DNA of 64,000 nt from Candidatus Jordarchaeales archaeon (GTDB lineage: Archaea > Asgardarchaeota > Jordiarchaeia > Jordiarchaeales > Freyrarchaeaceae): assembly GCA_038858525.1 (NCBI GenBank), contig JAWCFL010000001.1, forward strand, positions 2,053 to 66,052. Direction: 5' to 3'. The notes below the pieces were generated by a model that was not told the origin of the DNA, made no database searches, and worked only from the letters and a program-made list of their open reading frames with translations. Numbering within the stretch: position 1 is the stretch's first letter; every line of letters begins with the position of its first letter. The translations under genes were made by a program, and so were the position numbers. Shown here one piece after another: positions 16,118-49,571 of the stretch.

Positions 16118-17137
16118 ATGGATGTGAGCAGATATCTGTCCTTAAAAAGCGTTACGTTATTTTACAATGGAGGCGCCTTATTAGAGTATGAGGGACAAAT
16201 TCCAGTAAAAGACGAAGACACAGTATATCTTATGCCAGTCGAAATCGAGCTAGCAGAGCATGTTTTTTCTACGTTAAATGTAAGCGACTTTGATGGGGGA
16301 GCAATAACCGGGATCATCTACCAGCCTCCTGAAGAACCAATTTATAGTTGTGATATTAAGAGTAACGATTTTATTAGATGCTTGTTGCCCAAACTTATTG
16401 GAAAAAACATTAACTTAGGACTGAAAGGTGGCGAAGCAATTTCAGGCGTACTCTTAGGGTTCGATGAAAATAAAAACGATGAAGGTAACGATGTGTTTCT
16501 AAATGTTCTTTCGTCTGACAAACTTTATCGGGTCAGTATGGTTTCCGTGGAACATATTACTTTAGGAAGAAATTACGCTCTTGAACTAAGAAGCTTTGCT
16601 AAGGGAGAGTTAAAGGCCTATGTTGGCTGGAAGCTTGACCCAGGAACCTTAGTAAAAGACAAACACTTGGTGAACGTTAAGTATTTTCAACCATTAGGAA
16701 AGGGATGGAAAACTTTCTACCACCTTTACATAACAGATGACATATGGGTTCTGATAGTTTGGTGTGAGATCGTAAACGCCACTCCGAAAGATTGGAAGGA
16801 CGTATCTATTATCCTCACAACGGGGGCACCACTTACAACAGCCACTTCTGAACAAAAAGACGGTGGGATAGTAGAGCATAAGATCAATGGCCCAGTTACT
16901 GTGCCCAAGCTTTCAAGGGTCTTAATTCCGGTATCTAAGCTCGATGTTAAAGGCGAATTACAACTTCAGATAGATAATTCAGGTAAGATGAGCATAAAAA
17001 TAAACATTACAAATGAAAGCGGGAAAGTGCTGTTGCCTGGAAAAATAACCGTGTGGAAAAACGACCGACTTTTGGGAGTAGGAGAACTGCAATTTATTAA
17101 AAAAGGAGGAACGGCATCGATCGAAATAAGAGCCTGA
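16118..17137 (+). CDS. Hypothetical protein (339 aa; beta-rich, possibly DUF4139-like C-terminus)
   Basis: Coding-like ORF; no catalytic motif. Confidence 0.45.
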   Translation: MDVSRYLSLKSVTLFYNGGALLEYEGQIPVKDEDTVYLMPVEIELAEHVFSTLNVSDFDGGAITGIIYQPPEEPIYSCDIKSNDFIRCLLPKLIGKNINLGLKGGEAISGVLLGFDENKNDEGNDVFLNVLSSDKLYRVSMVSVEHITLGRNYALELRSFAKGELKAYVGWKLDPGTLVKDKHLVNVKYFQPLGKGWKTFYHLYITDDIWVLIVWCEIVNATPKDWKDVSIILTTGAPLTTATSEQKDGGIVEHKINGPVTVPKLSRVLIPVSKLDVKGELQLQIDNSGKMSIKINITNESGKVLLPGKITVWKNDRLLGVGELQFIKKGGTASIEIRA

Positions 17138-17340: not shown

Positions 17341-18210
17341 ATGAAGGGCAAGTATGTAAAGTACTCGGATAAGGTTTTAGAATTATTTTACGGCAATAGA
17401 GACGCATCCATGTTTCTTCCACTATTGAAGTTGTTTGCGGAGCACATGGAAAGCGTCTGCGAGGCTTGTATGGAAAATAAGATGGTTTGCACACTAAGAC
17501 CCATGTGTCCTGATAGGAGATGGCTTAGTTTTCTCATAAAGATAGGGGCGCAAAAACGTGACTTACCGAGTTTCTGCTATAAAACGAGGATTAGCGAGAT
17601 TAAAGCGATCATAGAAAAATCTAGTCATATACATTTTAGTGATGCCATTCTTCAGACGGATGTCTTCCTTAATATTCTTTCAGGTGGAAGATCACGTCTT
17701 ATAGAGCCACTTAAAAACGGTGACCTTGAAGGTTTTACTGAGGGGCTTATAGCAGAGTTCAGGCGGCATATAGATGATGTTTCGTTTTTTGTTGGTGAAA
17801 ATTACATATTTGTTTTGGTGGAGGATAACATATTTCTTATCTATTTGGATGATGGGTTCGTTCTGATAAATCCCGAGGAGAAAACGTTTGATTCCATCAG
17901 TGAGTTTAATGATCTAATACTGGCGGTTAAAAATCATTACGAAATACCCATCTGGGTGGAGGAGGATTTTAAGGGGTTTCCTCGTATATTAGTGAGGGTT
18001 CCTTATAAGCCAGATGTGGAACAAGCTTTAGGCAAGTTTGTTGAAAAGGTGGCGGACAGCACGGAGCACGCAAGCTTCTTTCGTAACGATGAAAGCTTCA
18101 TATTAGAAGTTGAGTTTGGCGCTATTAATTCTTCTCTTACGTTCAAAAAAGTGCTTTCCGTGCTCCGACGTATAAGGTCTCTTTGTCAAGAAGTAACTAG
18201 AGAAAGCTAG
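17341..18210 (+). CDS. Hypothetical protein with Cys-rich N-terminus
   Basis: 289 aa; CEACMENKMVCTLRPMCPDRRW cluster near the N-terminus. Confidence 0.45.
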   Translation: MKGKYVKYSDKVLELFYGNRDASMFLPLLKLFAEHMESVCEACMENKMVCTLRPMCPDRRWLSFLIKIGAQKRDLPSFCYKTRISEIKAIIEKSSHIHFSDAILQTDVFLNILSGGRSRLIEPLKNGDLEGFTEGLIAEFRRHIDDVSFFVGENYIFVLVEDNIFLIYLDDGFVLINPEEKTFDSISEFNDLILAVKNHYEIPIWVEEDFKGFPRILVRVPYKPDVEQALGKFVEKVADSTEHASFFRNDESFILEVEFGAINSSLTFKKVLSVLRRIRSLCQEVTRES

Positions 18211-18224
18211 GTGAGGTATCAGTT

Positions 18225-21200
18225 ATGGCTAAAGACTTTGTGTCTTTGATTGCCAGTAAATTTGGTCTCAGTGAGGATGAAGCAAAAGTATATAGCTTAT
18301 TCATTCTGTATAGAATTCTTACTTTGGGGGAAATATGCTATCACACGGCTCTTCCTACTTCAAAGGTTGAGTCTATTATTCAGTCCCTTAAGGATAAAGG
18401 CCTGATATCCCATGTTCCAGGTGTAATTGAAAGATATGTAGCCGTAACTCCCTTCAGGGCGCTATCTAAAGTGGCAGGCGATTTTATAAAGACGGCAGAG
18501 GAGGCAGATGCAAAATTAAGGAAGCATTTTGAAGTTAGCAAAGCTGACATAAAGAGAGCTGTTGACTCCTTTAAGTCCAACTTGAAGGATTCCGTGACGA
18601 AAGAGCTGCAGACTCTGAGGGGAGAGGTAAATAAGGCGAGCGAGCTTTTGGAAAAACTAGTTCAACGAGAGAAAGCGGACTTAAGTGACATGATAAAAAG
18701 AGCGGAATCTTATTCCTTAGGCCAACTGGAAAGTTACAAAAGATTTAGTGAGGAGTCTTTAACTTTAGTTAAAAGTGAGGTCGAAGAAGAATTAAAAAGC
18801 GTTTTAAACGAAGTGAGAAGAGTCACTGGGCAAAGTGCTGAAAGAGCATCAAATACTCTTGCATCTATGCTAGACAATGCGAATGTTATGTTGGGAGAAA
18901 TTGAGAAAAAAGTGATAAAGGATGTTTCGAAGATAGCGGAAACGACTGCTCTGACGGCGGGCAAGATCGCCGAGAAAGTAATGGAAGCCAAAAGTGAGTA
19001 TGATTCTAAAGTAAGGGAGACTGTCGAAGTTGCTAAGGGGATTACTTCTAAAACGATAGATCTGTTGAGAAAAGAGCTGGATGAACGAGCTGGTTTAATA
19101 GAGAGAATAACGTCTGAAACAATACGAAAAAGCATAGAGAGAAGAAAGGAGCAGGATAATAAGTTAGAGAAAATATTGAGCACGTCTCTGAGAGGTTCAG
19201 CTTCAGAGATCGCTAAAAGTATTTCTTCTTTCTACACTTCGGCTTTAAGGCCTCTCTGGTCCTTAAGTAGAGAGCATGAAAAATGGATTCAAAATATTTC
19301 AGAGCGCACTAGTAAGCTTGTAGATGCAAGCATTTCGCGTCTTTCTTTCATGATTGAGGAAACGAAGGCAAAAATTGCTGAACGCATTAAATCACAGTTT
19401 GAAATTCAAGAAGAAGTATTGAGAGGATTTGGCTCAAAAGTAAGAGAGCACGTGACGTCTAGTCTTAGGGAGTTTGATGCGGCTTCTTCTTCGACTAGAG
19501 AGCGGTTCTCGTCAGTCATAATGGAGAACACAAAAGCCACTAACGAAACCTTCGAGAAAACGAGGAAAGCAGTTGAGTCACTCGTATCAGAGAACGTGGA
19601 GATTATAAGAAATATGCTGAAAAAGGTTGAAGAGGAAGTTCAGGCATCACTGGTCACAGAGAGAGAGGCCGAGGAAAAGGAGTTTTCTAAGTTTAAAGAC
19701 GCGTTTTCGTCTATGTTGGAAGTTTCTAAGCGTGAGTTGACCGAGGCAACAGGGTTAATGTCTGAAAACGCACTTAAGGAAATTTATACACGGACAACGG
19801 AATTTATAAATGAATTGAAAAAGCTGAGGGAGAAAGTTTCCGAGGCCATCGAGAAGGAATTGAAGATGGTCAGGTGGGAGGCTGAGGAGGCACGAGGAAG
19901 CATAGAGAGATTTTTGGTTCAACGTATCACCGGTATGGAGGAGTATGCAGAACGCGTAAAGCAGCAGTTGGAGAGTATGGTCAAAGAGAGGCTGGAGGAG
20001 CTGAGTATCAGTGCTGAAGCTGTCCAAGTAGGATTTGCTGAATCAATGGACAAGATATTAGACAGAGTTAGGGAGATAGTAGAGGACGCGAAGAATGGTT
20101 TTTCGGTTTTACTTTCCACGCAGCTATCTTCATTTAAGGAAAATTTAGATAAGCTTGGCATGTCATTTGCCGATGAGCTAAGCCGGCAGGTGGATGCAAC
20201 TAAAACGGAGGCAAACGAAATTCTTTCAAACTTTTCAGAGGAGCTAGAGCACAGAGTTTCAGAAGTTGAGACTTTAGCGAAGCAGATTATGGAGAACGCG
20301 GAGGCTATGTTTAAAAGACAAGAAAAAATTAGCAGGCAACTTAGAGACGTAGTTTCAACTTTCCTTGTCCAAGAAACAAAGCGATATATAGATTCTTTTT
20401 CTAATATTTTAATTTCTTTAAACGAACGCTCGGTCTCCCTCATAGAGTCGAAGATAAAGTCGTTGGAGAAGCTCAGAAACAATCTCGAAAAAGAACTTCA
20501 CTCCCTTATAGTTAGTGAGGGGGCGGCGATAGAGGAAAAAAACGCTAGTTTAAGAGAGACGGTAAACTCATATGTTTCGGAGAGATACAAGGAATACGTT
20601 GAGTCATTAGAGGGCGTTGCTAAAGAGGTTGAAGAGCTACTTCGCGAACATATTGAATATTATAAAGAGCACCTAGAGGGGCTTATAAGAGGCTTATCAG
20701 ACGCTCTTGAAGAAACTTTAGGAAGAATATCTCAGGCCTCTAACGCAGTTATAAGTGATGCAGCTACTCAATTGGATACAGAAAAGGAAGCAATTGCGGG
20801 GGAAGCAAAGATTTTAATCGAAGCTGCGAGTAAAATGCTTGATTTTTACGTTAAGAAGCTGAGGAGCAGCATTGCGGCCTCTTTAAATGATCTACTGAAG
20901 GAAGTATCAAGAAGAATAGAGAGCTTAAGGGAGGAGGGGGAAAGAGTCGAATCTTTAGTGAGGGAGGTCGTCGAGGCGGACTTTAAAGAATTTGAAGAGG
21001 CGCTCAAGAACTTAGAAGGAGCTTTAGCTTTAAATGTTAATAATGAAAAGGAAAGAACACTTTCCAGTGTTATCCAGTTAGAGTTAAAGTTACAAGATTT
21101 GCTAAACAAGGTGGGAGAGGAACTTGGCGCTTACTCAAGAGGTATACAGGAAGAAAGCAAAGGAATTTTAGATAATTACTCGAGAGAAGTAACAGGTCTT

Positions 21201-22148
21201 CTGGATGCTTCTGGTAAAGAAATTAACAGTTACCTAGAAGAAAGTAGGAAAATTTTCGGAGTAAAAACAGATGAAGTTAAAGACATGATTAATGGATTAA
21301 TGGAGGAGCTTTCAAAAGAATTAGATGAAATAATACATAGAACACGTGAAGGCATAGCTACATTAGTAAAGGGGTATCATGAAAAAATAGAACGAAATGT
21401 GGAGGAGACTAGAGCACACCTTATAAGTGAGCTTAAAACATGCATAGAAAAAGAAGAAAAAGACGTGACTAGCTTTAGTCAAAACGTAGTTGAAACGCTA
21501 TTTCGTCTAATGGAAAGTTGTGGAAAAACATTGGAGGAATTAAACAACAATGTGACATCATACTTAAGTGAGTTTTACGAGAAAGCCGCCGAACATTTAG
21601 ATGGTACAATGAAGGGAATAAGTGAAAAAGTAAGAATTCTACTTGAAGAGTTAAGAGCCGTAGAGTCAATATCTAGCTCAGCATGGGAGGAACTGGCGAA
21701 AGCCCCCCTAAGCATTGAGAAAACGTGTTTCATAGCTACGAGAGAAGTAGTAAAAACGCGGATGAGGGATATGGCAAAGCGAACTAAAAATTCATTGATA
21801 ATAGTGGCTCCCGAGCTAGGAGAACTTCCAATAGAGGAGTTATTAGGGATAGAGCCGCCAGCGAAATTGTACGTGTTCACTGATTTCGATTTACCCTCAG
21901 AGCTCAGCATTTTGAAGAGCTTAATAAGTAAGAGGAATCTCCGTTTGTGGAAAAGAAAGGAAAAAGAATTTTTCATGTGTCTACGGGACGATGAGGAAAT
22001 TCTGATTGCTCCAGTATCCAAAGAAACACCTATCTTAGCAATAGTGAGCGAAGAGCGAAGCTACATTGATTCTTACAAACGCACATTAATACCGTTTCTC
22101 AGGTCGACAGCTAAAGAAGTGAAATTGAAAGACATAGACTCTGTTTAG
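18225..22148 (+). CDS. Giant coiled-coil protein with N-terminal TrmB-type wHTH and C-terminal TrmB-C-like domain
   Basis: 1307 aa. Residues 1-80 read LSEDEAKVYSLFILYRILTLGEICYHTALPTSKVESIIQSLKDKGLISHV (TrmB-family HTH). They are followed by more than 1000 residues of uninterrupted Glu/Lys/Leu-rich heptad sequence and a 140-aa non-helical C-terminal domain. Confidence 0.7.
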   Translation: MAKDFVSLIASKFGLSEDEAKVYSLFILYRILTLGEICYHTALPTSKVESIIQSLKDKGLISHVPGVIERYVAVTPFRALSKVAGDFIKTAEEADAKLRKHFEVSKADIKRAVDSFKSNLKDSVTKELQTLRGEVNKASELLEKLVQREKADLSDMIKRAESYSLGQLESYKRFSEESLTLVKSEVEEELKSVLNEVRRVTGQSAERASNTLASMLDNANVMLGEIEKKVIKDVSKIAETTALTAGKIAEKVMEAKSEYDSKVRETVEVAKGITSKTIDLLRKELDERAGLIERITSETIRKSIERRKEQDNKLEKILSTSLRGSASEIAKSISSFYTSALRPLWSLSREHEKWIQNISERTSKLVDASISRLSFMIEETKAKIAERIKSQFEIQEEVLRGFGSKVREHVTSSLREFDAASSSTRERFSSVIMENTKATNETFEKTRKAVESLVSENVEIIRNMLKKVEEEVQASLVTEREAEEKEFSKFKDAFSSMLEVSKRELTEATGLMSENALKEIYTRTTEFINELKKLREKVSEAIEKELKMVRWEAEEARGSIERFLVQRITGMEEYAERVKQQLESMVKERLEELSISAEAVQVGFAESMDKILDRVREIVEDAKNGFSVLLSTQLSSFKENLDKLGMSFADELSRQVDATKTEANEILSNFSEELEHRVSEVETLAKQIMENAEAMFKRQEKISRQLRDVVSTFLVQETKRYIDSFSNILISLNERSVSLIESKIKSLEKLRNNLEKELHSLIVSEGAAIEEKNASLRETVNSYVSERYKEYVESLEGVAKEVEELLREHIEYYKEHLEGLIRGLSDALEETLGRISQASNAVISDAATQLDTEKEAIAGEAKILIEAASKMLDFYVKKLRSSIAASLNDLLKEVSRRIESLREEGERVESLVREVVEADFKEFEEALKNLEGALALNVNNEKERTLSSVIQLELKLQDLLNKVGEELGAYSRGIQEESKGILDNYSREVTGLLDASGKEINSYLEESRKIFGVKTDEVKDMINGLMEELSKELDEIIHRTREGIATLVKGYHEKIERNVEETRAHLISELKTCIEKEEKDVTSFSQNVVETLFRLMESCGKTLEELNNNVTSYLSEFYEKAAEHLDGTMKGISEKVRILLEELRAVESISSSAWEELAKAPLSIEKTCFIATREVVKTRMRDMAKRTKNSLIIVAPELGELPIEELLGIEPPAKLYVFTDFDLPSELSILKSLISKRNLRLWKRKEKEFFMCLRDDEEILIAPVSKETPILAIVSEERSYIDSYKRTLIPFLRSTAKEVKLKDIDSV

Positions 22149-22421: not shown

Positions 22422-22769
22422 ATGATAAGCTGGGAAAATGTAGGTGATGATGAAGAATTAAAGGAGTTGAATGCTTTAAAGAAATTTGTGACAGGTGATT
22501 ATGTCAAAATAGCTATCTTAGAGCAACTTGTCAAAGGAGGCTGGTGTACCTTGAGCGAGCTGTGCAGAGCTGCAAGGGGGTACGACAGATATGTCGGACA
22601 CGTGAGAGTATCTACAATATTACAATACATGGAGAGCATCGCTAAAGGCATTTTAGAAAAAGCAGAAAACGAGTTTTCTGTAAAGTGGAGAATTAGACCT
22701 GAGAAGAAAAAGGACATAGAAGGCTGGATTGGAGAAATAAAGTCGACACCTTATCGTAAAAGTTTTTAA
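22422..22769 (+). CDS. Small winged-helix (HTH) protein
   Basis: 115 aa; ...DYVKIAILEQLVKGGWCTLSELCRAARGYDRYVGHVRVSTILQYMESIAKGILEK. Confidence 0.5.
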   Translation: MISWENVGDDEELKELNALKKFVTGDYVKIAILEQLVKGGWCTLSELCRAARGYDRYVGHVRVSTILQYMESIAKGILEKAENEFSVKWRIRPEKKKDIEGWIGEIKSTPYRKSF

Positions 22770-23577: not shown

Positions 23578-23722
23578 AAGGATCCCCTCACTGATTCGCT
23601 CAAATAAAGACGCTGAATCTAAGAATTAAGAAGGAATATATAAATGCTTTTTCACATCAAAACCTCAAAAATTAAGTATCTTCACGTCTAATCATGGAAA
23701 ACAAAAATATGACGGAGGTTGG

Positions 23723-23812
23723 TGGGCGGGCCAGGATTTGAACCTGGGTCCTCCACGGTGTCAACTTCGCCTCTTCTTTGTGTGGCGTCATAACCAGCTA
23801 GACTACCCGCCC
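23723..23812 (-). tRNA. Intron-containing tRNA (anticodon unresolved; one parse gives GAC = Val)
   Basis: Reverse complement reads GGGCGGG-TA-GTCT-AGCTGGTTA-TGAC...GACCCAGGTTCAAATCCTGGCCCGCCC-A. The acceptor and T-arm are canonical; the 90-nt length implies a roughly 16-nt intron in or next to the anticodon loop. Confidence 0.65.
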
Positions 23813-40214: not shown

Positions 40215-42640
40215 TTGTCAAGGAATGAGAAAATCGTGCTCTGGTTTGAGGAGATAGGAAAGGAGGACGTTGCGCTTGTAGGCGGGAAATGCGCAAACCT
40301 TGGGGAAATGATCACAAAGGCTAAGGTGCCTGTACCTCCGGGGTTTGCGGTGACGACGTATGCATATAAACGATTCATAAAGGAGACCAAGATAATGGAC
40401 AAGATCTTCAGCAAACTCAGGGAAATTGACGTTAGAGATTTGAAGCAACTGGAAGAGGCGTCTAGAGAAATAAGGAAGCTTATTGAGGGGACTAAGGTTC
40501 CAGAAGACATACAGTCAGCTATATTAAGTGCTTATGATGATTTAGCAAGAAGAGTTGGCAGAGAGCCGCTTGTAGCTGTCCGTTCTAGCGCGTCGGCAGA
40601 GGATAGAGACAGGGTCTCCCTCTCTTGCCGGGCGCTAGTTTTGCCGGGCAGCAAGATACTTTCCTGAATGTCTCTAAAGGTGAGCTTGTAGAGAGTGTAA
40701 GGCGTTGCTGGAGTAGCCTATTTACTCCTAGAGCGATAGCATATAGAGAGGAGAAGGGGTTTAGACATGAGGACGTGTCAATAGGGGTTGCCGTTCAGGA
40801 GATGGTTGACGCGAAAGCTGCGGGAGTTATGTTTAGCATACACCCAGTTACAGGGGATAAAAACAGAATTCTTATAGAGGCCAGCTGGGGACTTGGTGAG
40901 GCCGTAGTAAGTGGGGCTGTGACCCCTGACACATACATAGTAGATAAAAAAACTTTTGAAATTCTCGAAAAACAAATTGCAACTAAAAAAGTGGAGCATA
41001 TAAGGGATCCTAAAACTGGAAAGACGATACATGTGGAGGTCCCGAAGGAGAGGCAAAACGTTCCAGCCTTAACGGATGAAGAAATAAAGGCGCTGGCGAG
41101 ATACGCCCGCCAGATAGAGCAGCATTATGGTACGCCGCAGGACATGGAGTGGGCTATTGACAAAGACGGGAGGATATTTATACTCCAAGCAAGGCCAGAA
41201 ACAGTTCACTCGACGGGATCAGCCATAGTGGAGCAACGATTAGTGGAGGAAAAGGAGGGGGAAGTGCTGGTGAGGGGATTGCCTGTTTCACCAGGAGTAG
41301 GGGCAGGGAAAGTCAAGGTAATCCTTAACGTTAAGGACATTGACAAGGTCAAAGAGGGGGATGTGCTTGTCACTAAGATGACTACACCTGACTGGGTTCC
41401 AGCCATGAAGAGGGCGGCAGCAATAGTTACGGATGAGGGAGGATACACTTGTCATGCAGCTATAGTGTCACGCGAGCTTGGCGTCCCATGTGTTGTTGGG
41501 ACTGGAAACGCGACAGAGGTGCTGGTGAATGTTGATGCTGTGACTGTTGATGGTGGAAAAGGATTAGTGTATCGCGGGATAATTAAAGCTGCTAAGGAGG
41601 AAGAATTTAGAGCTCCGGCTGTCGTTGAAGCTCAGATGATGATTCCGACTGCTACGAAGATATACGTTAACCTCTCAATACCAGAAATCGCTGATAAGGT
41701 TGCAAGGGAGACAATGGCTGATGGAGTTGGGCTTCTCAGAGCGGAGCACATGATGGTGACCATAGGCAAGCATCCTCGGAAGCTTATAGAGGAAGGTGGA
41801 GAAAACCTAATGGTTGAAAAATTCGCAGAGGGAATACGGAAAGTTGCAGAAGCGTTCTACCCGGGACCTGTAGTTTACAGGTTCTTAGACTTTAAGCCGG
41901 ACGAGTTCCTAGCCTTAGAAGGAGGGGAAAAATACGAGCTAGAGGCGGGGCACGTTGGTCCAAATCCCATGATAGGATACAGAGGCCAGTACAGGTACGT
42001 TAAGGAGCCAGATATATTCAGGTTGGAGTGCAGAGCTGTAAAGAAGGTTAGGGACGAGTTTGGGCTGAAAAACGTGTGGGTTATGGTTCCCTTTGTCAGC
42101 ACAGTAGAGGTCTTCAGAGAAGTAAAAAGGATAATGAAAGAAGAAGGGCTTGACAGGGAGAAGGATCCGGACTTTAAACTGTGGATAATGGTTGAGGTGC
42201 CAAGCAGCGTCTTTCTTATAGATAAGTTCTGCGAGGAGGGCATAGATGGGGTTTCCTTCGGCACTAACGACCTTACAATGCTGGTGCTAGGAGTTGATAG
42301 GAACGACGCAGCTGTCCAGGAACTCTACGACGAACGCAACTTAGCAGTTCTTAGAGCAATAGCGTACACGATAAAGATATGCGAAAAATATGGAGTCACT
42401 ACATCCATATGTGGGCAAGCTCCCAGTGTTTACCCAGACTACTTAGAGTTTCTAGTGAGAATGGGCGCTACCTCGATAAGTGTAAATCCAGATGCTGTGA
42501 AGCGAACACGTGAGATGGTGGCAAGAATAGAGCAGAAGATCATGATGGAAAAAGCGCTGAACGTGAAGCCCAGAATCAAAATAGGAAAAAGTTTTCTTGA
42601 AGAGGTGGCGTTCTGGAAATTGATAGACGATGAGGCATGA
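40215..42640 (+). pseudogene. ppsA: Phosphoenolpyruvate synthase interrupted by a frameshift (ORFs 40215-40667 and 40625-42640)
   Basis: The N-terminal ORF ends ...VAVRSSASAEDRDRVSLSCRALVLPGSKILS. The second frame resumes LPGASFAGQQDTFLNV, the canonical continuation of the ATP-grasp motif. The phosphohistidine domain and PEP-utilizer TIM barrel are intact. The frame shifts near 40611-40616, beside a duplicated ttgccgggc. This could be a sequencing error, a true pseudogene or recoding. Confidence 0.85.
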
Positions 42641-47141: not shown

Positions 47142-49571
47142 TCAAGCTTTTCTTGTAAGCGTGACTTTGGTAAGCGATGAAGAAAGTTGCCTTGCTTCAA
47201 GTTTTAATGGTAACTGATCGAGCACGCCTAGATGAGTTGTTATAACTTTGCTTCCGAAAAGCTTTTCGAGCTCTAACGCCAACTTAGCATCACGCTCATC
47301 GAGAAAAACTACTATCACAACGCCATGCTTCTCAACTGCTTTCTCGAGTTGCTGTGATAATTTTTTAATCTCTTTTTCTGTCTTGGTAAGCGCTAGTTTG
47401 AATGGATGGCCATTTATGAAGCCATCTAGTCCCAGCTTCGGATCTCTAAATTGAACCAACAGTAAGCCTGTTTCGCTGCATATTTTTTCGATTAAGTCGT
47501 AGGCATATGAGGAGACTACTTCATTTATTCCTCTTGTTTCGAGGAAGAAAACGGGGAGACGCTTTCCGCCGGGCATAGGGAGATAAGCACAATTGACGTG
47601 TGGTTTGGTCTTTCTTACTCTTCTTAGCGTTTCCCAAACGTCTTCTTTCGAAGCACCTGATGCTTGCGATATAAGTTTTTCCGTAACATAGGTAGAGTTT
47701 TCTAGCAGATGAAGGACTTTTGCCTCGAGCTCGGAGACAGGGTAACTGGAATTAATGGAAGTATCTCCTTGAGTGGAAGTATCTCCTTGCAATTGGAGAT
47801 GAAAAATTAGTGGAGGACAATCGCTCCTTAAGAAAGAGAATGTCCTGTCATCTTGCTTAATGCTTTCAGTTTCCATTATAATAGATTTAAAGCGCTGAGA
47901 GTGATGAGGAGTGAGACTAGAAGCATTAAAGTTAAATGTTGAAAAAAGGAGAATAGGAGTCTTAGAAGCGTTGTCTGTAATGCCACATTCTAGTAGGTTA
48001 ATAATAATTGATGGCGATGCAATTACTAGGATAGCATATTCATTTTTAGGACATAGATCAATGATTATGGAAGTTAAAAACTCGAGCGTGGTTAATGTAA
48101 GTCTAGATGATTGCTTGCTTAAGTCAAGGAAAATCTTTGGAGCGGGGAATAGTTCTACCAATGTCGGATGATTTTCCTCAAAGAACTCGGTTAAAACACC
48201 ACGCTTTATATCTGAAAGAAACTCTTTTGTTCTTTCCTCTTGACAAGTTTCATCTGACATTATGCGAGTTGCTTCAAGCAGAAATGAGACGATGCGTTCA
48301 TGACTCGTTGTTCTTATAAGCTCTCGGATCATGCTACTTTCCGTAGCTGGAAAATTAAGCACTTTGGCTAGCAGGTTTACAAGTCTCGCAAGGTACTCGT
48401 GGAGAGGCATATTAGAGGAAGGGACAAGGGATATCGAGGTAAAACCGTTTTTCTCAGATAGGGCCAGCCCACCCATCGCATCCCTCAACTGAAACGTAAT
48501 TCCCTGAAAATCAAGAATTAGCCATTTGTATGGTAGATGAAAAGCCAAATTTTTGATGAGCAAAGCGAGTGAACTAGGTTGCCTTACTAAGAGCAAGGCA
48601 GGGTTAAGGAGGTTTTCGTCTATTTTAAAGTCAAGCACATGGTTTTTAATAAGCAACTTTCCCAAAGTGACCGAGTGACTGATAGACGGAGGTGGTTCTG
48701 GAACACAAATGTGTTCTAGGAAATCACGAAGCATGTCAATGTCGCCTAAAAGAGGGGGAGAACTTGAAACGTAAAAACGGCAGGTAATCTTGAGCAAGTT
48801 CTTTAGAACCATTCTACTCTTCATGAGGGAAACACGGTATATAGGGTACATGAAGGCTTTAATTTCTTCCACCGCTTCACTTAAAGAAGATAGACTTCTG
48901 CTTAAAAGAACTACGTAGGGCGATAGCTTAACGTTAAACGAACCACTCGCCGCATCCTCACGGGTTTTGCTAAGTTTAGAGGTGGAATTACTTATAGGTT
49001 TCATTGGTAAAATTAAATGAATGATTATATCGAATTTTTTCGATGCTTTTCTTAGCTCTTCGAGCAACTCGCTTATCCGTTGAGAAGAAATAGAGGAAAA
49101 AGTCATCACAGAAAGAAAGAACGGGGAGCCTGCATTTTCCAAACGCAAAACATTTTCTCTACCAATTAGAGAAGCTTTCTTAAACGTTTTATCCCCCAGA
49201 ATTGAGAAAAACATCTCACTTAAATCAGTATTCGGCTCAACCTGTGTGAAACCTAACGAGTGAAGAAGAGTAGTTGAGGAACAGTAAAGGTATATGAGCC
49301 TGCGTTCTTTTTCCTTGGATATTGCTAATTCAAGTGAGGCCTCTAAGCCGCGCATCTTGATAACATTTTCTAATTGTTCTAATTGACTAGGAGAATTGAG
49401 GGGCAAAATAACACCGGCCTTAAAGAGCCTACGCTTTCTCATAAGCCAGATCTCGCTTTTTTTCACAACGAGTTTGAAGTGATTCCTAGTAAAATAAAAG
49501 TAAATAGCGAACAGTAACAGAAAAAAGAAAAGCAAAGTTAAAGTTCTGAGCGAAAGCAAACAGTTCACCAC
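47142..49571 (-). CDS. Large membrane-anchored hypothetical protein (809 aa), no P-loop
   Basis: N-terminal TM helix (LLSLRTLTLLFFFLLLFAIYFYF), then about 780 residues of mixed a/b sequence without Walker motifs. Confidence 0.5.
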   Translation of the reverse strand: MVNCLLSLRTLTLLFFFLLLFAIYFYFTRNHFKLVVKKSEIWLMRKRRLFKAGVILPLNSPSQLEQLENVIKMRGLEASLELAISKEKERRLIYLYCSSTTLLHSLGFTQVEPNTDLSEMFFSILGDKTFKKASLIGRENVLRLENAGSPFFLSVMTFSSISSQRISELLEELRKASKKFDIIIHLILPMKPISNSTSKLSKTREDAASGSFNVKLSPYVVLLSRSLSSLSEAVEEIKAFMYPIYRVSLMKSRMVLKNLLKITCRFYVSSSPPLLGDIDMLRDFLEHICVPEPPPSISHSVTLGKLLIKNHVLDFKIDENLLNPALLLVRQPSSLALLIKNLAFHLPYKWLILDFQGITFQLRDAMGGLALSEKNGFTSISLVPSSNMPLHEYLARLVNLLAKVLNFPATESSMIRELIRTTSHERIVSFLLEATRIMSDETCQEERTKEFLSDIKRGVLTEFFEENHPTLVELFPAPKIFLDLSKQSSRLTLTTLEFLTSIIIDLCPKNEYAILVIASPSIIINLLECGITDNASKTPILLFSTFNFNASSLTPHHSQRFKSIIMETESIKQDDRTFSFLRSDCPPLIFHLQLQGDTSTQGDTSINSSYPVSELEAKVLHLLENSTYVTEKLISQASGASKEDVWETLRRVRKTKPHVNCAYLPMPGGKRLPVFFLETRGINEVVSSYAYDLIEKICSETGLLLVQFRDPKLGLDGFINGHPFKLALTKTEKEIKKLSQQLEKAVEKHGVVIVVFLDERDAKLALELEKLFGSKVITTHLGVLDQLPLKLEARQLSSSLTKVTLTRKA

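Follow-up and report, generated by a model that had tools for sequence, protein, structure and literature searches.

What kind of protein is encoded by an archaeal gene whose product starts like a small transcription regulator, ends in a compact domain and consists of helix-forming sequence over more than a thousand residues in between? The gene in question occupies positions 18225..22148 (+) of a stretch of 64,000 nucleotides (contig JAWCFL010000001.1, assembly GCA_038858525.1) from a Candidatus Jordarchaeales archaeon. This whole stretch is called the window below, and the product of 1307 amino acids (aa) is called the giant. A previous examination of the DNA letters and their open reading frames (ORFs), named here the sequence-only reading, had seen in it a TrmB scaffold stretched into a rod of about 150 nm and had suggested a DNA-anchored structural protein. 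The present finding goes beyond this note, as it is that of a large, apparently Asgard-specific family with ruler-like length conservation, in which the giant can best be regarded as TrmBL2-like and highly derived. The function that we favour, at a probability of roughly 45%, is that of a bipolar strut of fixed length which derives from TrmB, has antiparallel chains and acts on DNA.

Domain architecture and periodicity of the rod

The gene starts with an ATG, ends with the stop codon at 22146-22148 and contains no internal stop. Sixteen contigs of independent assemblies (NCBI, JGI and Logan) yielded the identical 1307-aa product with the same neighbours, among which GCA_038819355.1 (423-kb contig), GCA_038868355.1, Logan SRR27170999 and JGI 3300022544. 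Because the same protein was called on 16 independently assembled contigs, an artefactual fusion of two ORFs, against which the sequence-only reading had advised a check, is excluded. Orthologues of 1307, 1308, 1308 and 1303 aa were present at the syntenic loci L001, L003, L059 and L061. Searches of Pfam and NCBIfam detected no ATPase, SMC or Rad50 domain in the 1307-aa protein, and the earlier statement that it has no ATPase head and is neither an SMC nor a Rad50 protein thus holds. No signal peptide or membrane segment was detected in its sequence. The net charge was -40 for the whole protein and -45 for the rod.

Residues 11-87 (18255..18485, +) constitute a TrmB-type winged helix-turn-helix (wHTH) domain. 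Residues 12-76 matched the Pfam TrmB model PF01978 with an E-value of 5.5e-11 and 42.6 bits, well above the curated cutoff of 25.6, so that the assignment of the N-terminus to the TrmB family passed the profile check. The best sequence match in the PDB, found by phmmer and covering residues 2-101, was the TrmBL2 structure 5bpd (E 6.7e-7). Within the wHTH, the residues conserved in the family were Y23, L55, G66, R70, Y71 and P76; the wing pair Arg70-Tyr71 and the structural residues were the only conserved positions of this domain among the 81 family members described below.

At the other end, residues 1148-1307 (21666..22145, +) form a compact alpha/beta domain of about 160 aa, modelled by AlphaFold2 (AF2) with a predicted local distance difference test (pLDDT) score of 85. 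It is a PLD-like domain of the TrmB/TrmBL2 type, in agreement with the compact, TrmB-C-like tail that had been proposed. The PLD-like domain is the first sub-domain of the TrmB effector domain. In the giant it lacks the catalytic HxK(x4)D motif, and the signature of the C-domain family was R-D-x-E-E-(I/V)-L-(I/L)-A-P. The protein ends after these 160 residues: the sugar-binding beta-barrel sub-domain (Gly320/Glu326), which defines TrmB and TrmBL1, is absent, as it is from TrmBL2. The best PDB sequence match of the family C-domain profile was TrmBL2, at a marginal E-value of 0.05, and PF11495, the Pfam model of the TrmB regulator C-domain, is matched by a short member of 249 aa that bears the label Crenarchaeota. 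These two matches tie the family to ordinary TrmB proteins by sequence, besides fold.

TrmB and TrmBL2 are ordered as wHTH, pairing helix and PLD-like domain (PMC4877046). The domain order of the giant is the same, and both of its end domains match TrmB/TrmBL2 by sequence or fold. Also, short members of the family (230-450 aa) bridge the giants to the sizes of ordinary TrmB proteins. The idea of a TrmB scaffold stretched into a rod of about 150 nm is thus well supported by the domain order, the end-domain matches and the short bridging members.

The rod itself spans 1060 residues (88-1147; 18486..21665, +), that is, about 96 hendecads or 48 22-mers in one unbroken register. It had been described as made of Glu/Lys/Leu heptad repeats, and this proved wrong: over residues 91-1160, the hydrophobic power spectrum reached about 32 at a period of 11/3 (3.667) and 0.2 at 3.5, when the maximum power in 200 shuffles of the sequence was 2.1. 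The 11/3 phase stayed within about ±25° from residue ~67 to residue ~1156, over ~96 hendecads without a stutter. Amphipathic periodicity begins at about residue 67-77, right after the wing, and the resulting helix is about 35 times longer than that of TrmB. Even multiples of 11 gave a positive autocorrelation and odd ones a negative one, and therefore the true repeat unit is a 22-mer. In this unit, an a-d-h(k) hendecad alternates with an a-e-h(k) hendecad, and core positions are 73-96% hydrophobic. A peak at 11/3 and none at 3.5 was also observed in all orthologues and throughout the 81 members, in which the best hydrophobic period was 3.62-3.87 (3.64-3.69 in most members with long rods) and the power at 3.5 never exceeded about 2.

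The earlier description of an unbroken Glu/Lys/Leu rod of more than 1000 residues stands as to its continuity, since about 1060 residues are continuous amphipathic, helix-forming sequence with a single proline (P343). It does not stand as to its composition (E 16%, L 11%, S 11%, K 9%), in which Ser is as frequent as Leu. If the rod is one continuous helix, its length would be about 157 nm. Only three positions in 11 belong to the core, and so narrow a hydrophobic seam fits a two-stranded coil and not a lipid-binding helix or a charged single alpha-helix. A single alpha-helix (SAH) domain was considered and rejected, as the a/d/e/h positions are 73-96% hydrophobic. The Pfam Apolipoprotein model PF01442 scored 103.3 bits over six stretches of the rod, above its gathering cutoff of 90; the rod being built of 2 x 11 repeats, this score is a match of pattern.

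Three islands of the rod were markedly more conserved than the rest, with 59-77% three-way identity as against a mean of 34% for the rod. The first one (residues 331-352, KSISSFYTSALRPLWSLSREHE; 19215..19280, +) contains the sole proline of the rod and reached 68%. The second (residues 485-517, ..FSSMLEVSKRELTE..; 19677..19775, +) reached 73-77%, and the third (residues 694-726, ..KQEKISRQLRDV..LVQE.KRYIDSFS; 20304..20402, +) reached 59-64%.

Family, rod length and orientation of the chains

A word-indexed search with the full-length giant retrieved 3 relatives only. When a profile of the C-domain was compared exhaustively by HMMER with 1.84 billion cluster representatives, it yielded at least 392 clusters at E <= 1e-3, of which 115 at E <= 1e-10. 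In these proteins, which range from ~230 to 1913 aa, the C-domain was always C-terminal. Full-length sequences with both the TrmB wHTH and the C-domain were retrieved for 81 members, with rods of 89-1667 residues. All long members that bear an organism name are Asgard and come from ten lineages (Jordarchaeales, Freyarchaeota, Helarchaeota, Atabeyarchaeia, Hodarchaeota, Baldrarchaeia, Sigynarchaeota, Thorarchaeota, Borrarchaeum and Promethearchaeota). Several paralogues of differing length per genome occur: Helarchaeota have family proteins of four sizes, and two paralogues were found in one 2.8-Mb genome of Atabeyarchaeia. Existing annotations are "hypothetical protein", "helix-turn-helix domain-containing protein" and, once (JGI), "sugar-specific transcriptional regulator TrmB". 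The family thus appears large, unnamed and Asgard-specific. In this respect, the earlier view that the giant could not be assigned to any described family is right insofar as the family has no name, and has to be corrected insofar as the giant is not an orphan, being part of a large family of TrmB ancestry. No published description of these proteins was found with searches on hendecads, TrmB, Asgard and coiled coils in a searchable literature that is incomplete. As far as we found, the building blocks are known, and the architecture, the fixed-length hendecad rod, the Asgard-wide spread and the conserved partner are undescribed. Giants of exactly 1913 aa with identical downstream genes were observed under two labels, in metagenome-assembled genomes (MAGs) of Borrarchaeum and Promethearchaeota (L004, L005, L006); this points either to very close relatives or to a wrong label on one MAG.

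The length of the rod is under strong constraint. No internal insertion or deletion (indel) occurs over the 1308 alignment columns of four orthologues from Jordarchaeales that are 38-68% identical, namely the window protein, P0001, P0002 and the product of the L059 gene. The giant is the fastest-evolving gene of its block (mean identity 47%) with 0 indels, and its shorter neighbours (62-75%) have 1-4 each. Between two anchors, Pro76 in the N-domain (99% conserved) and the Thr of a K-T-W motif in the C-domain, the distance was 1091 residues in Jordarchaeales; it was one residue longer (1092) in P0022 of Freyarchaeota, which is ~21% identical, and one shorter (1090) in P0043 of Helarchaeota, which is ~19% identical. 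Other length classes were defined by anchor distances of 763 (four clusters), 723 (four), 737 (three), 1551-1553 (five) and 1700 (two). The pattern of these sequences is that of a family occurring in discrete conserved rod lengths, of which several classes can coexist in one genome. The anchor distances of 86 non-redundant members, taken modulo 11 or 22, gave a weak signal (chi-square p 0.03) in data that are not independent, and no claim is made from it. A rod length fixed across three archaeal classes suggests an undescribed molecular ruler or scaffold.

These data bear directly on the most ordinary explanation, namely a sequence-specific regulator in which the long middle would be a tolerated, compositionally biased linker. 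The TrmB HTH match and the JGI annotation of one member as a sugar-specific regulator speak for it. A neutral linker should nevertheless gather indels, and none occurs in spite of the fastest evolution in the neighbourhood; nor would such a linker be expected to keep a phase-coherent hendecad over 1060 residues or, in several classes, a length constant to within one residue. Moreover, the residues that would recognise DNA are not conserved and the sugar-binding sub-domain is missing. This explanation is very improbable, and largely refuted by the phase, indel and length data.

A better account of the missing indels may come from the way in which TrmB subunits pair. In TrmB, the helices of two subunits contact each other by the pairs Phe81/Ile91' and Phe84/Leu88', in antiparallel orientation and with domain-swapped DNA-binding domains (PMC4158304), and TrmBL2 is a symmetric dimer of dimers (PMC11840125). 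In an antiparallel homodimer, an indel away from the centre would put the two chains out of match, even if it were an in-phase one of 11 or 22 residues, and this would account for the absence of even such in-phase indels. Only changes at the dyad, or tandem duplications centred there, would keep all contacts in such a dimer.

Where changes of length did occur in the family, several were indeed central. Between L061 and P0022 (62% identical), rod indels were limited to alignment columns 574 and 637, on either side of the centre. Internal duplications were sought by a diagonal scan (self-BLAST gave the identity match only). In P0107 (1537 aa; JGI/ENA metagenomes) it revealed a recent tandem duplication of 232 residues (~511-741 / ~743-973, 74% identical) with its junction at rod residue 648/1307, within 6 residues of the midpoint. 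As 232 is 21 x 11 + 1, a one-residue register shift occurs exactly at this junction. The members of a 1110-aa clade share a 289-residue duplication with a junction at ~437/853, and a duplication in P0047 is centred at 586/1146. Sixteen sequences had one register break only; in 7 of them it lay at a relative position of 0.45-0.56, as compared with ~14% expected. From these patterns, the narrow seam and the antiparallel helix of TrmB, we infer a two-stranded rod with chains in antiparallel orientation.

The opposite arrangement deserves to be weighed against the same data. Two or four chains could lie parallel and in register, with a pair of wHTH domains at one end and a pair of PLD-like domains ~157 nm away, and the rod would then hold DNA or another ligand of the wHTH at a set distance from a second structure, for example the envelope, a filament or a partner complex. 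Parallel chains are known from hendecad rods such as that of tetrabrachion. Also, TrmB and TrmBL2 place paired wHTHs on DNA, PLD-fold domains commonly dimerise, as in Nuc, the unbroken register of many members is equally compatible with parallel chains, and a conserved length suits a tether or a ruler as well. Yet in a parallel rod, in-phase indels of 11 or 22 residues would be tolerable anywhere, and none occurs. Parallel chains also leave it unexplained why indels, duplication junctions and register breaks gather at the midpoint, and in TrmB, the ancestral form, the helix is antiparallel. We consider a parallel tether to be rather unlikely, though the likeliest of the alternatives.

The special behaviour of the midpoint would also fit the apex of an SMC-like fold-back, in which each chain would form an intramolecular antiparallel hairpin of ~80 nm, with the wHTH and the PLD-like domain together in a TrmBL2-like head and the apex as tip or hinge. 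A strict matching of the two arms would explain the intolerance to indels, and P0003 has a lone register shift near mid-rod. What speaks against a hairpin is that the centre of the rod shows no register break, proline or Gly-rich turn in the window protein, P0001, P0022, P0081, P0057 and others. A turn would preserve the 11/3 phase by chance only, and tandem duplications centred on the dyad would shift the apex onto formerly helical sequence. Because of the missing break, proline or Gly-rich turn, the hairpin, which is clearly unlikely, was ranked below the intermolecular antiparallel model.

We thus return to the antiparallel strut and propose how it could have arisen and how it could work. 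The simplest evolutionary route would be an elongation of the antiparallel helix of TrmB: through duplications of 22-residue (2 x 11) units, the helix by which the subunits pair would have grown into a hendecad coiled coil of 1060 residues. Two chains would pair antiparallel to give a straight, dyad-symmetric strut of ~157 nm, with the winged helix of one chain and the PLD-like domain of the other at each end. The rod would serve as a stiff spacer whose length is set by the gene. Its ends would bind the target and might also join the ends of other rods, in the manner of the dimer of dimers of TrmBL2. The target would most likely be DNA, contacted non-specifically, and two loci or assemblies would be kept a set distance apart.

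Several observations weigh against this proposal. As for orientation, conservation showed no clear mirror symmetry about the rod centre (r 0.13-0.24 at the midpoint, with best centres wandering between 535 and 729 according to the smoothing). No signal of core-volume complementarity or compensatory change (i vs S-i, for every in-phase centre of symmetry) was obtained at the centre either, with |z| <= 2.7 elsewhere and only 3-4 orthologues. Duplications located at 0.54 (L013), 0.45 (P0040) and 0.36 (P0065) are off-centre, a doubling of the whole rod would put its junction at the centre under any topology, and the midpoint statistics rest on related, non-independent sequences. TrmB and TrmBL2 contact DNA with paired wHTHs (PMC4877046), when an antiparallel rod has one wHTH per end. 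In addition, no operon partner is common to the whole family, the neighbourhoods being clade-specific, so that they offer no functional anchor. As for DNA, the residues by which TrmB recognizes it are Y50/D51 in the recognition helix (PMC4158304), and these correspond to E49/S50 in the giant, K/S in P0001 and D/F in P0002. The recognition helix is predominantly acidic and poorly conserved across the 81 members, and the net charge of the giant is -40. DNA binding by the giant is thus doubtful and constitutes the weakest link of the proposal. The ends of the rod may bind DNA only non-specifically, or only once ends associate; they may instead have been recruited to bind protein. Of the earlier idea of a DNA-anchored structural protein, the structural rod is retained, and the anchoring on DNA is unproven, given the E49/S50 replacement and the acidic, variable recognition helix.

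If the ends bind protein, the giant could belong to a cytoskeleton or scaffold that does not involve DNA: the degenerate wHTH would be a protein-protein module, and the rods would bundle, polymerise end to end or coat a surface in the manner of apolipoproteins. The acidic, poorly conserved recognition helix and the charge of the protein fit such a role, as do the Pfam Apolipoprotein match above cutoff, the small GTPase and Roadblock/LC7 genes in Asgard neighbourhoods and the presence of several paralogues of different length per genome. However, a narrow seam of 3 positions in 11 on acidic rods is unlike lipid-binding class A helices, and the protein has neither signal peptide nor membrane segment. 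The wHTH also retains the wing Arg-Tyr of TrmB and passes the Pfam cutoff, and genes for a DNA ligase and an Ssb-like OB protein adjoin the giants in one clade. Altogether, we regard a scaffold of this kind as quite improbable.

Gene neighbourhood and the cysteine-rich partner

In Jordarchaeales, the order of genes is HcyBio, NIL-ferredoxin, a DUF4139-like protein of 339 aa, a partner protein of 289 aa, the giant, a 115-aa protein and, on the opposite strand, proteasome beta. The partner gene (17341..18210, +) ends 15 bp before the ATG of the giant, and across three classes the two genes are separated by 14-16 bp or share 4 bp. Five invariant cysteines of the partner (C40-x2-C43-x6-C50-x5-C56 ... 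C79) lie in its N-terminal helical region, after which come two alpha/beta modules. The cysteine pattern suggests a Zn or Fe-S site, in a fold without close solved relative. In the Freyarchaeota-type locus L061, the partner is 34% identical and the giant has 1303 aa. In the Helarchaeota locus L062, a 286-aa gene lies 16 bp upstream of a 1316-aa giant; it matched the partner profile with an HHalign probability of 99.5% (E 2e-23), and the Cys motif is kept. The partner recurs in the Jordarchaeales, Freyarchaeota-type and Helarchaeota loci, and therefore the partner and the rod of the "1091-class" form a module conserved across three Asgard classes. In the strut model, this Cys-rich protein of 289 aa would probably bind the rod or load it, and the conserved islands may be the site of contact.

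The other neighbours are less constant. The DUF4139-like gene (16118..17137, +) gave weak matches to DUF4139, MuiA and LSM, and its homologue in L061 reached the Pfam DUF4139 cutoff (34.6 bits vs 31.8). It is syntenic in two classes, at the Jordarchaeales and Freyarchaeota-type loci, and absent from the Helarchaeota locus. The 115-aa gene (22422..22769, +) follows the giant immediately (+1) at L001, L002, L003, L007, L008 and L059, is conserved only within Jordarchaeales, and had no match in Pfam, NCBIfam, PADLOC or PHROG. The block of unknowns seen by the sequence-only reading is thus linked to the giant in part: the 289-aa partner in three classes, the DUF4139-like gene in only two, and the 115-aa gene only within Jordarchaeales. 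A recurrent small wHTH gene downstream of the giants was considered and rejected, as the Jordarchaeales 115-aa gene and the downstream genes of 126-137 aa of the Borrarchaeum clade are not homologous; for these two, or for either of them with the TrmB wHTH, the HHalign probability was ~1%.

In other clades, an AAA_16/STAND-like ATPase is encoded upstream, or a DNA ligase and an Ssb-like OB protein downstream, and V4R-Roadblock and Arf-like GTPase genes are also found. The first of these, a protein of ~630 aa with AAA_16/STAND-like ATPase, winged-helix-like and TPR-like (tetratricopeptide repeat) regions, is encoded at -1/-2 in L023, L024, L027, L030, L040, L046 and L047, where the giants that it precedes have 1110, 1123 or 1532 aa and thus belong to three length classes. 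In L051, the family gene of 1393 aa is preceded by a shorter homologue of 219 aa. The clade of 1528-1795 aa (L012, L013, L015, L017, L018) has an ATP-dependent DNA ligase immediately downstream on the opposite strand, followed by the Ssb-like OB-fold protein.

The window is an ordinary chromosomal region, in which the giant lies among housekeeping genes; it also encodes AMP phosphorylase, DNA ligase, aCPSF1, topoisomerase I, RtcB and enolase. Some other features of it were recorded. The phosphoenolpyruvate (PEP) synthase ORF at 40625-42640 (+) aligns to its NCBIfam model only from position 132/798; about 130 N-terminal residues are thus absent from the listed ORF, and an upstream start, a frameshift or a split gene could explain this. 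An ORF of 809 aa at 47142-49571 (-) had no NCBIfam match at E <= 1e-10 and is another big unannotated protein of the window. A tRNA was detected at 23720-23812 (-) by Rfam (51.9 bits) and reported by ARAGORN as "tRNA-???" with a four-base anticodon (aaag) over 93 nt; it may contain an archaeal intron or have an odd anticodon loop. Stop-codon recoding has been reported for Jordarchaeia (PMC9723677).

Significance and comparison with known systems

If the proposed strut is real, it would represent a new class of architectural proteins in Asgard archaea, whose cell and chromatin organization bears on the origin of eukaryotes. In its widest form, the proposal is that Asgard archaea possess an ATPase-free family of length-calibrated, bipolar antiparallel hendecad struts with a DNA-binding head at each end, in classes of ~15-250 nm and with several paralogues per genome, which would set fixed spacings in the nucleoid or from the nucleoid to other structures of the cell. 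In this form it is rather unlikely. If it held, struts of 15-250 nm would add to the architecture of the chromosome or the cell a level that has escaped notice in the lineage from which eukaryotes arose, comparable in function to a nucleoskeletal scaffold. The giant is also an extreme case among coiled coils, with ~96 hendecads in one register and a ruler-like length kept over class-level divergence at ~20% identity. It would illustrate that a small transcription-factor scaffold, that of TrmB/TrmBL2, can be converted into a rod of at least 100 nm through duplication of a 22-residue unit, and it provides a testable evolutionary rule, according to which changes of length are expected only at the dyad. 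The rod, its three islands and the Cys-rich partner are concrete targets for experiments in those Asgard species that are now culturable.

The closest known proteins are TrmBL2, a chromatin protein of Thermococcales (5bpd, 5box), and TrmB (3qph, 2f5t). The giant shares with the TrmB family the wHTH, the amphipathic helix that follows it and the PLD-like domain. It differs by the absence of the recognition residues Y50/D51, the Tyr and Asp of the recognition helix of TrmB/TrmBL2, by a hendecad rod of ~1060 residues in place of a pairing helix of ~30, and by a family found in Asgard archaea and not in Thermococcales.

Compared with SMC, Rad50 and MukB proteins, the giant has in common a very long coiled coil with globular ends, a rod length that is apparently selected and a possible role in organizing DNA. 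Unlike them, it has no ATPase head, hinge or zinc hook, and its rod is an unbroken hendecad where their arms are interrupted heptads. Right-handed hendecad stalks have been described (PMC3293630; PMC6131620). The stalk of tetrabrachion and the E-G peripheral stalk of the A/V-ATPase share with the giant the 11/3 period and the a-d/e-h core; these rods of 50-500 residues are unrelated to it and carry neither wHTH nor PLD-like domain, when the giant has ~96 hendecads without stutter.

The rod also matched PHROG tape-measure families (E 1e-9 to 4e-15) and the PADLOC model of ZorA (E down to 4e-22). These matches are explained by the 2 x 11 organization and cover helical repeats only. Phage tape-measure proteins and ZorA tails do share with the giant the match to a helical rod and the concept of a genetically fixed length, and the giant may function in a way similar to such length-determining rods. 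A phage tail tape-measure protein was rejected, as the neighbours (HcyBio, NIL-ferredoxin, proteasome beta, FKBP26) are in conserved chromosomal synteny and include no tail genes. ZorA was rejected as well, since the PADLOC and NCBIfam models were matched only in the tail region (profile positions ~220 onward), with no MotA/ExbB membrane domain and no ZorB neighbour. More generally, hendecad-rich rods can yield misleading defence or phage annotations.

Finally, exchangeable apolipoproteins (PF01442) resemble the giant by their tandem 22-mers made of two 11-mers, hence the score above the gathering cutoff. They consist of class A helices punctuated by prolines and with a broad lipid face, whereas the rod of the giant has 1 Pro in 1060 residues, a narrow seam and an acidic character. 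The giant is moreover archaeal and cytoplasmic, and its resemblance to apolipoproteins is one of repeat pattern, not of family.

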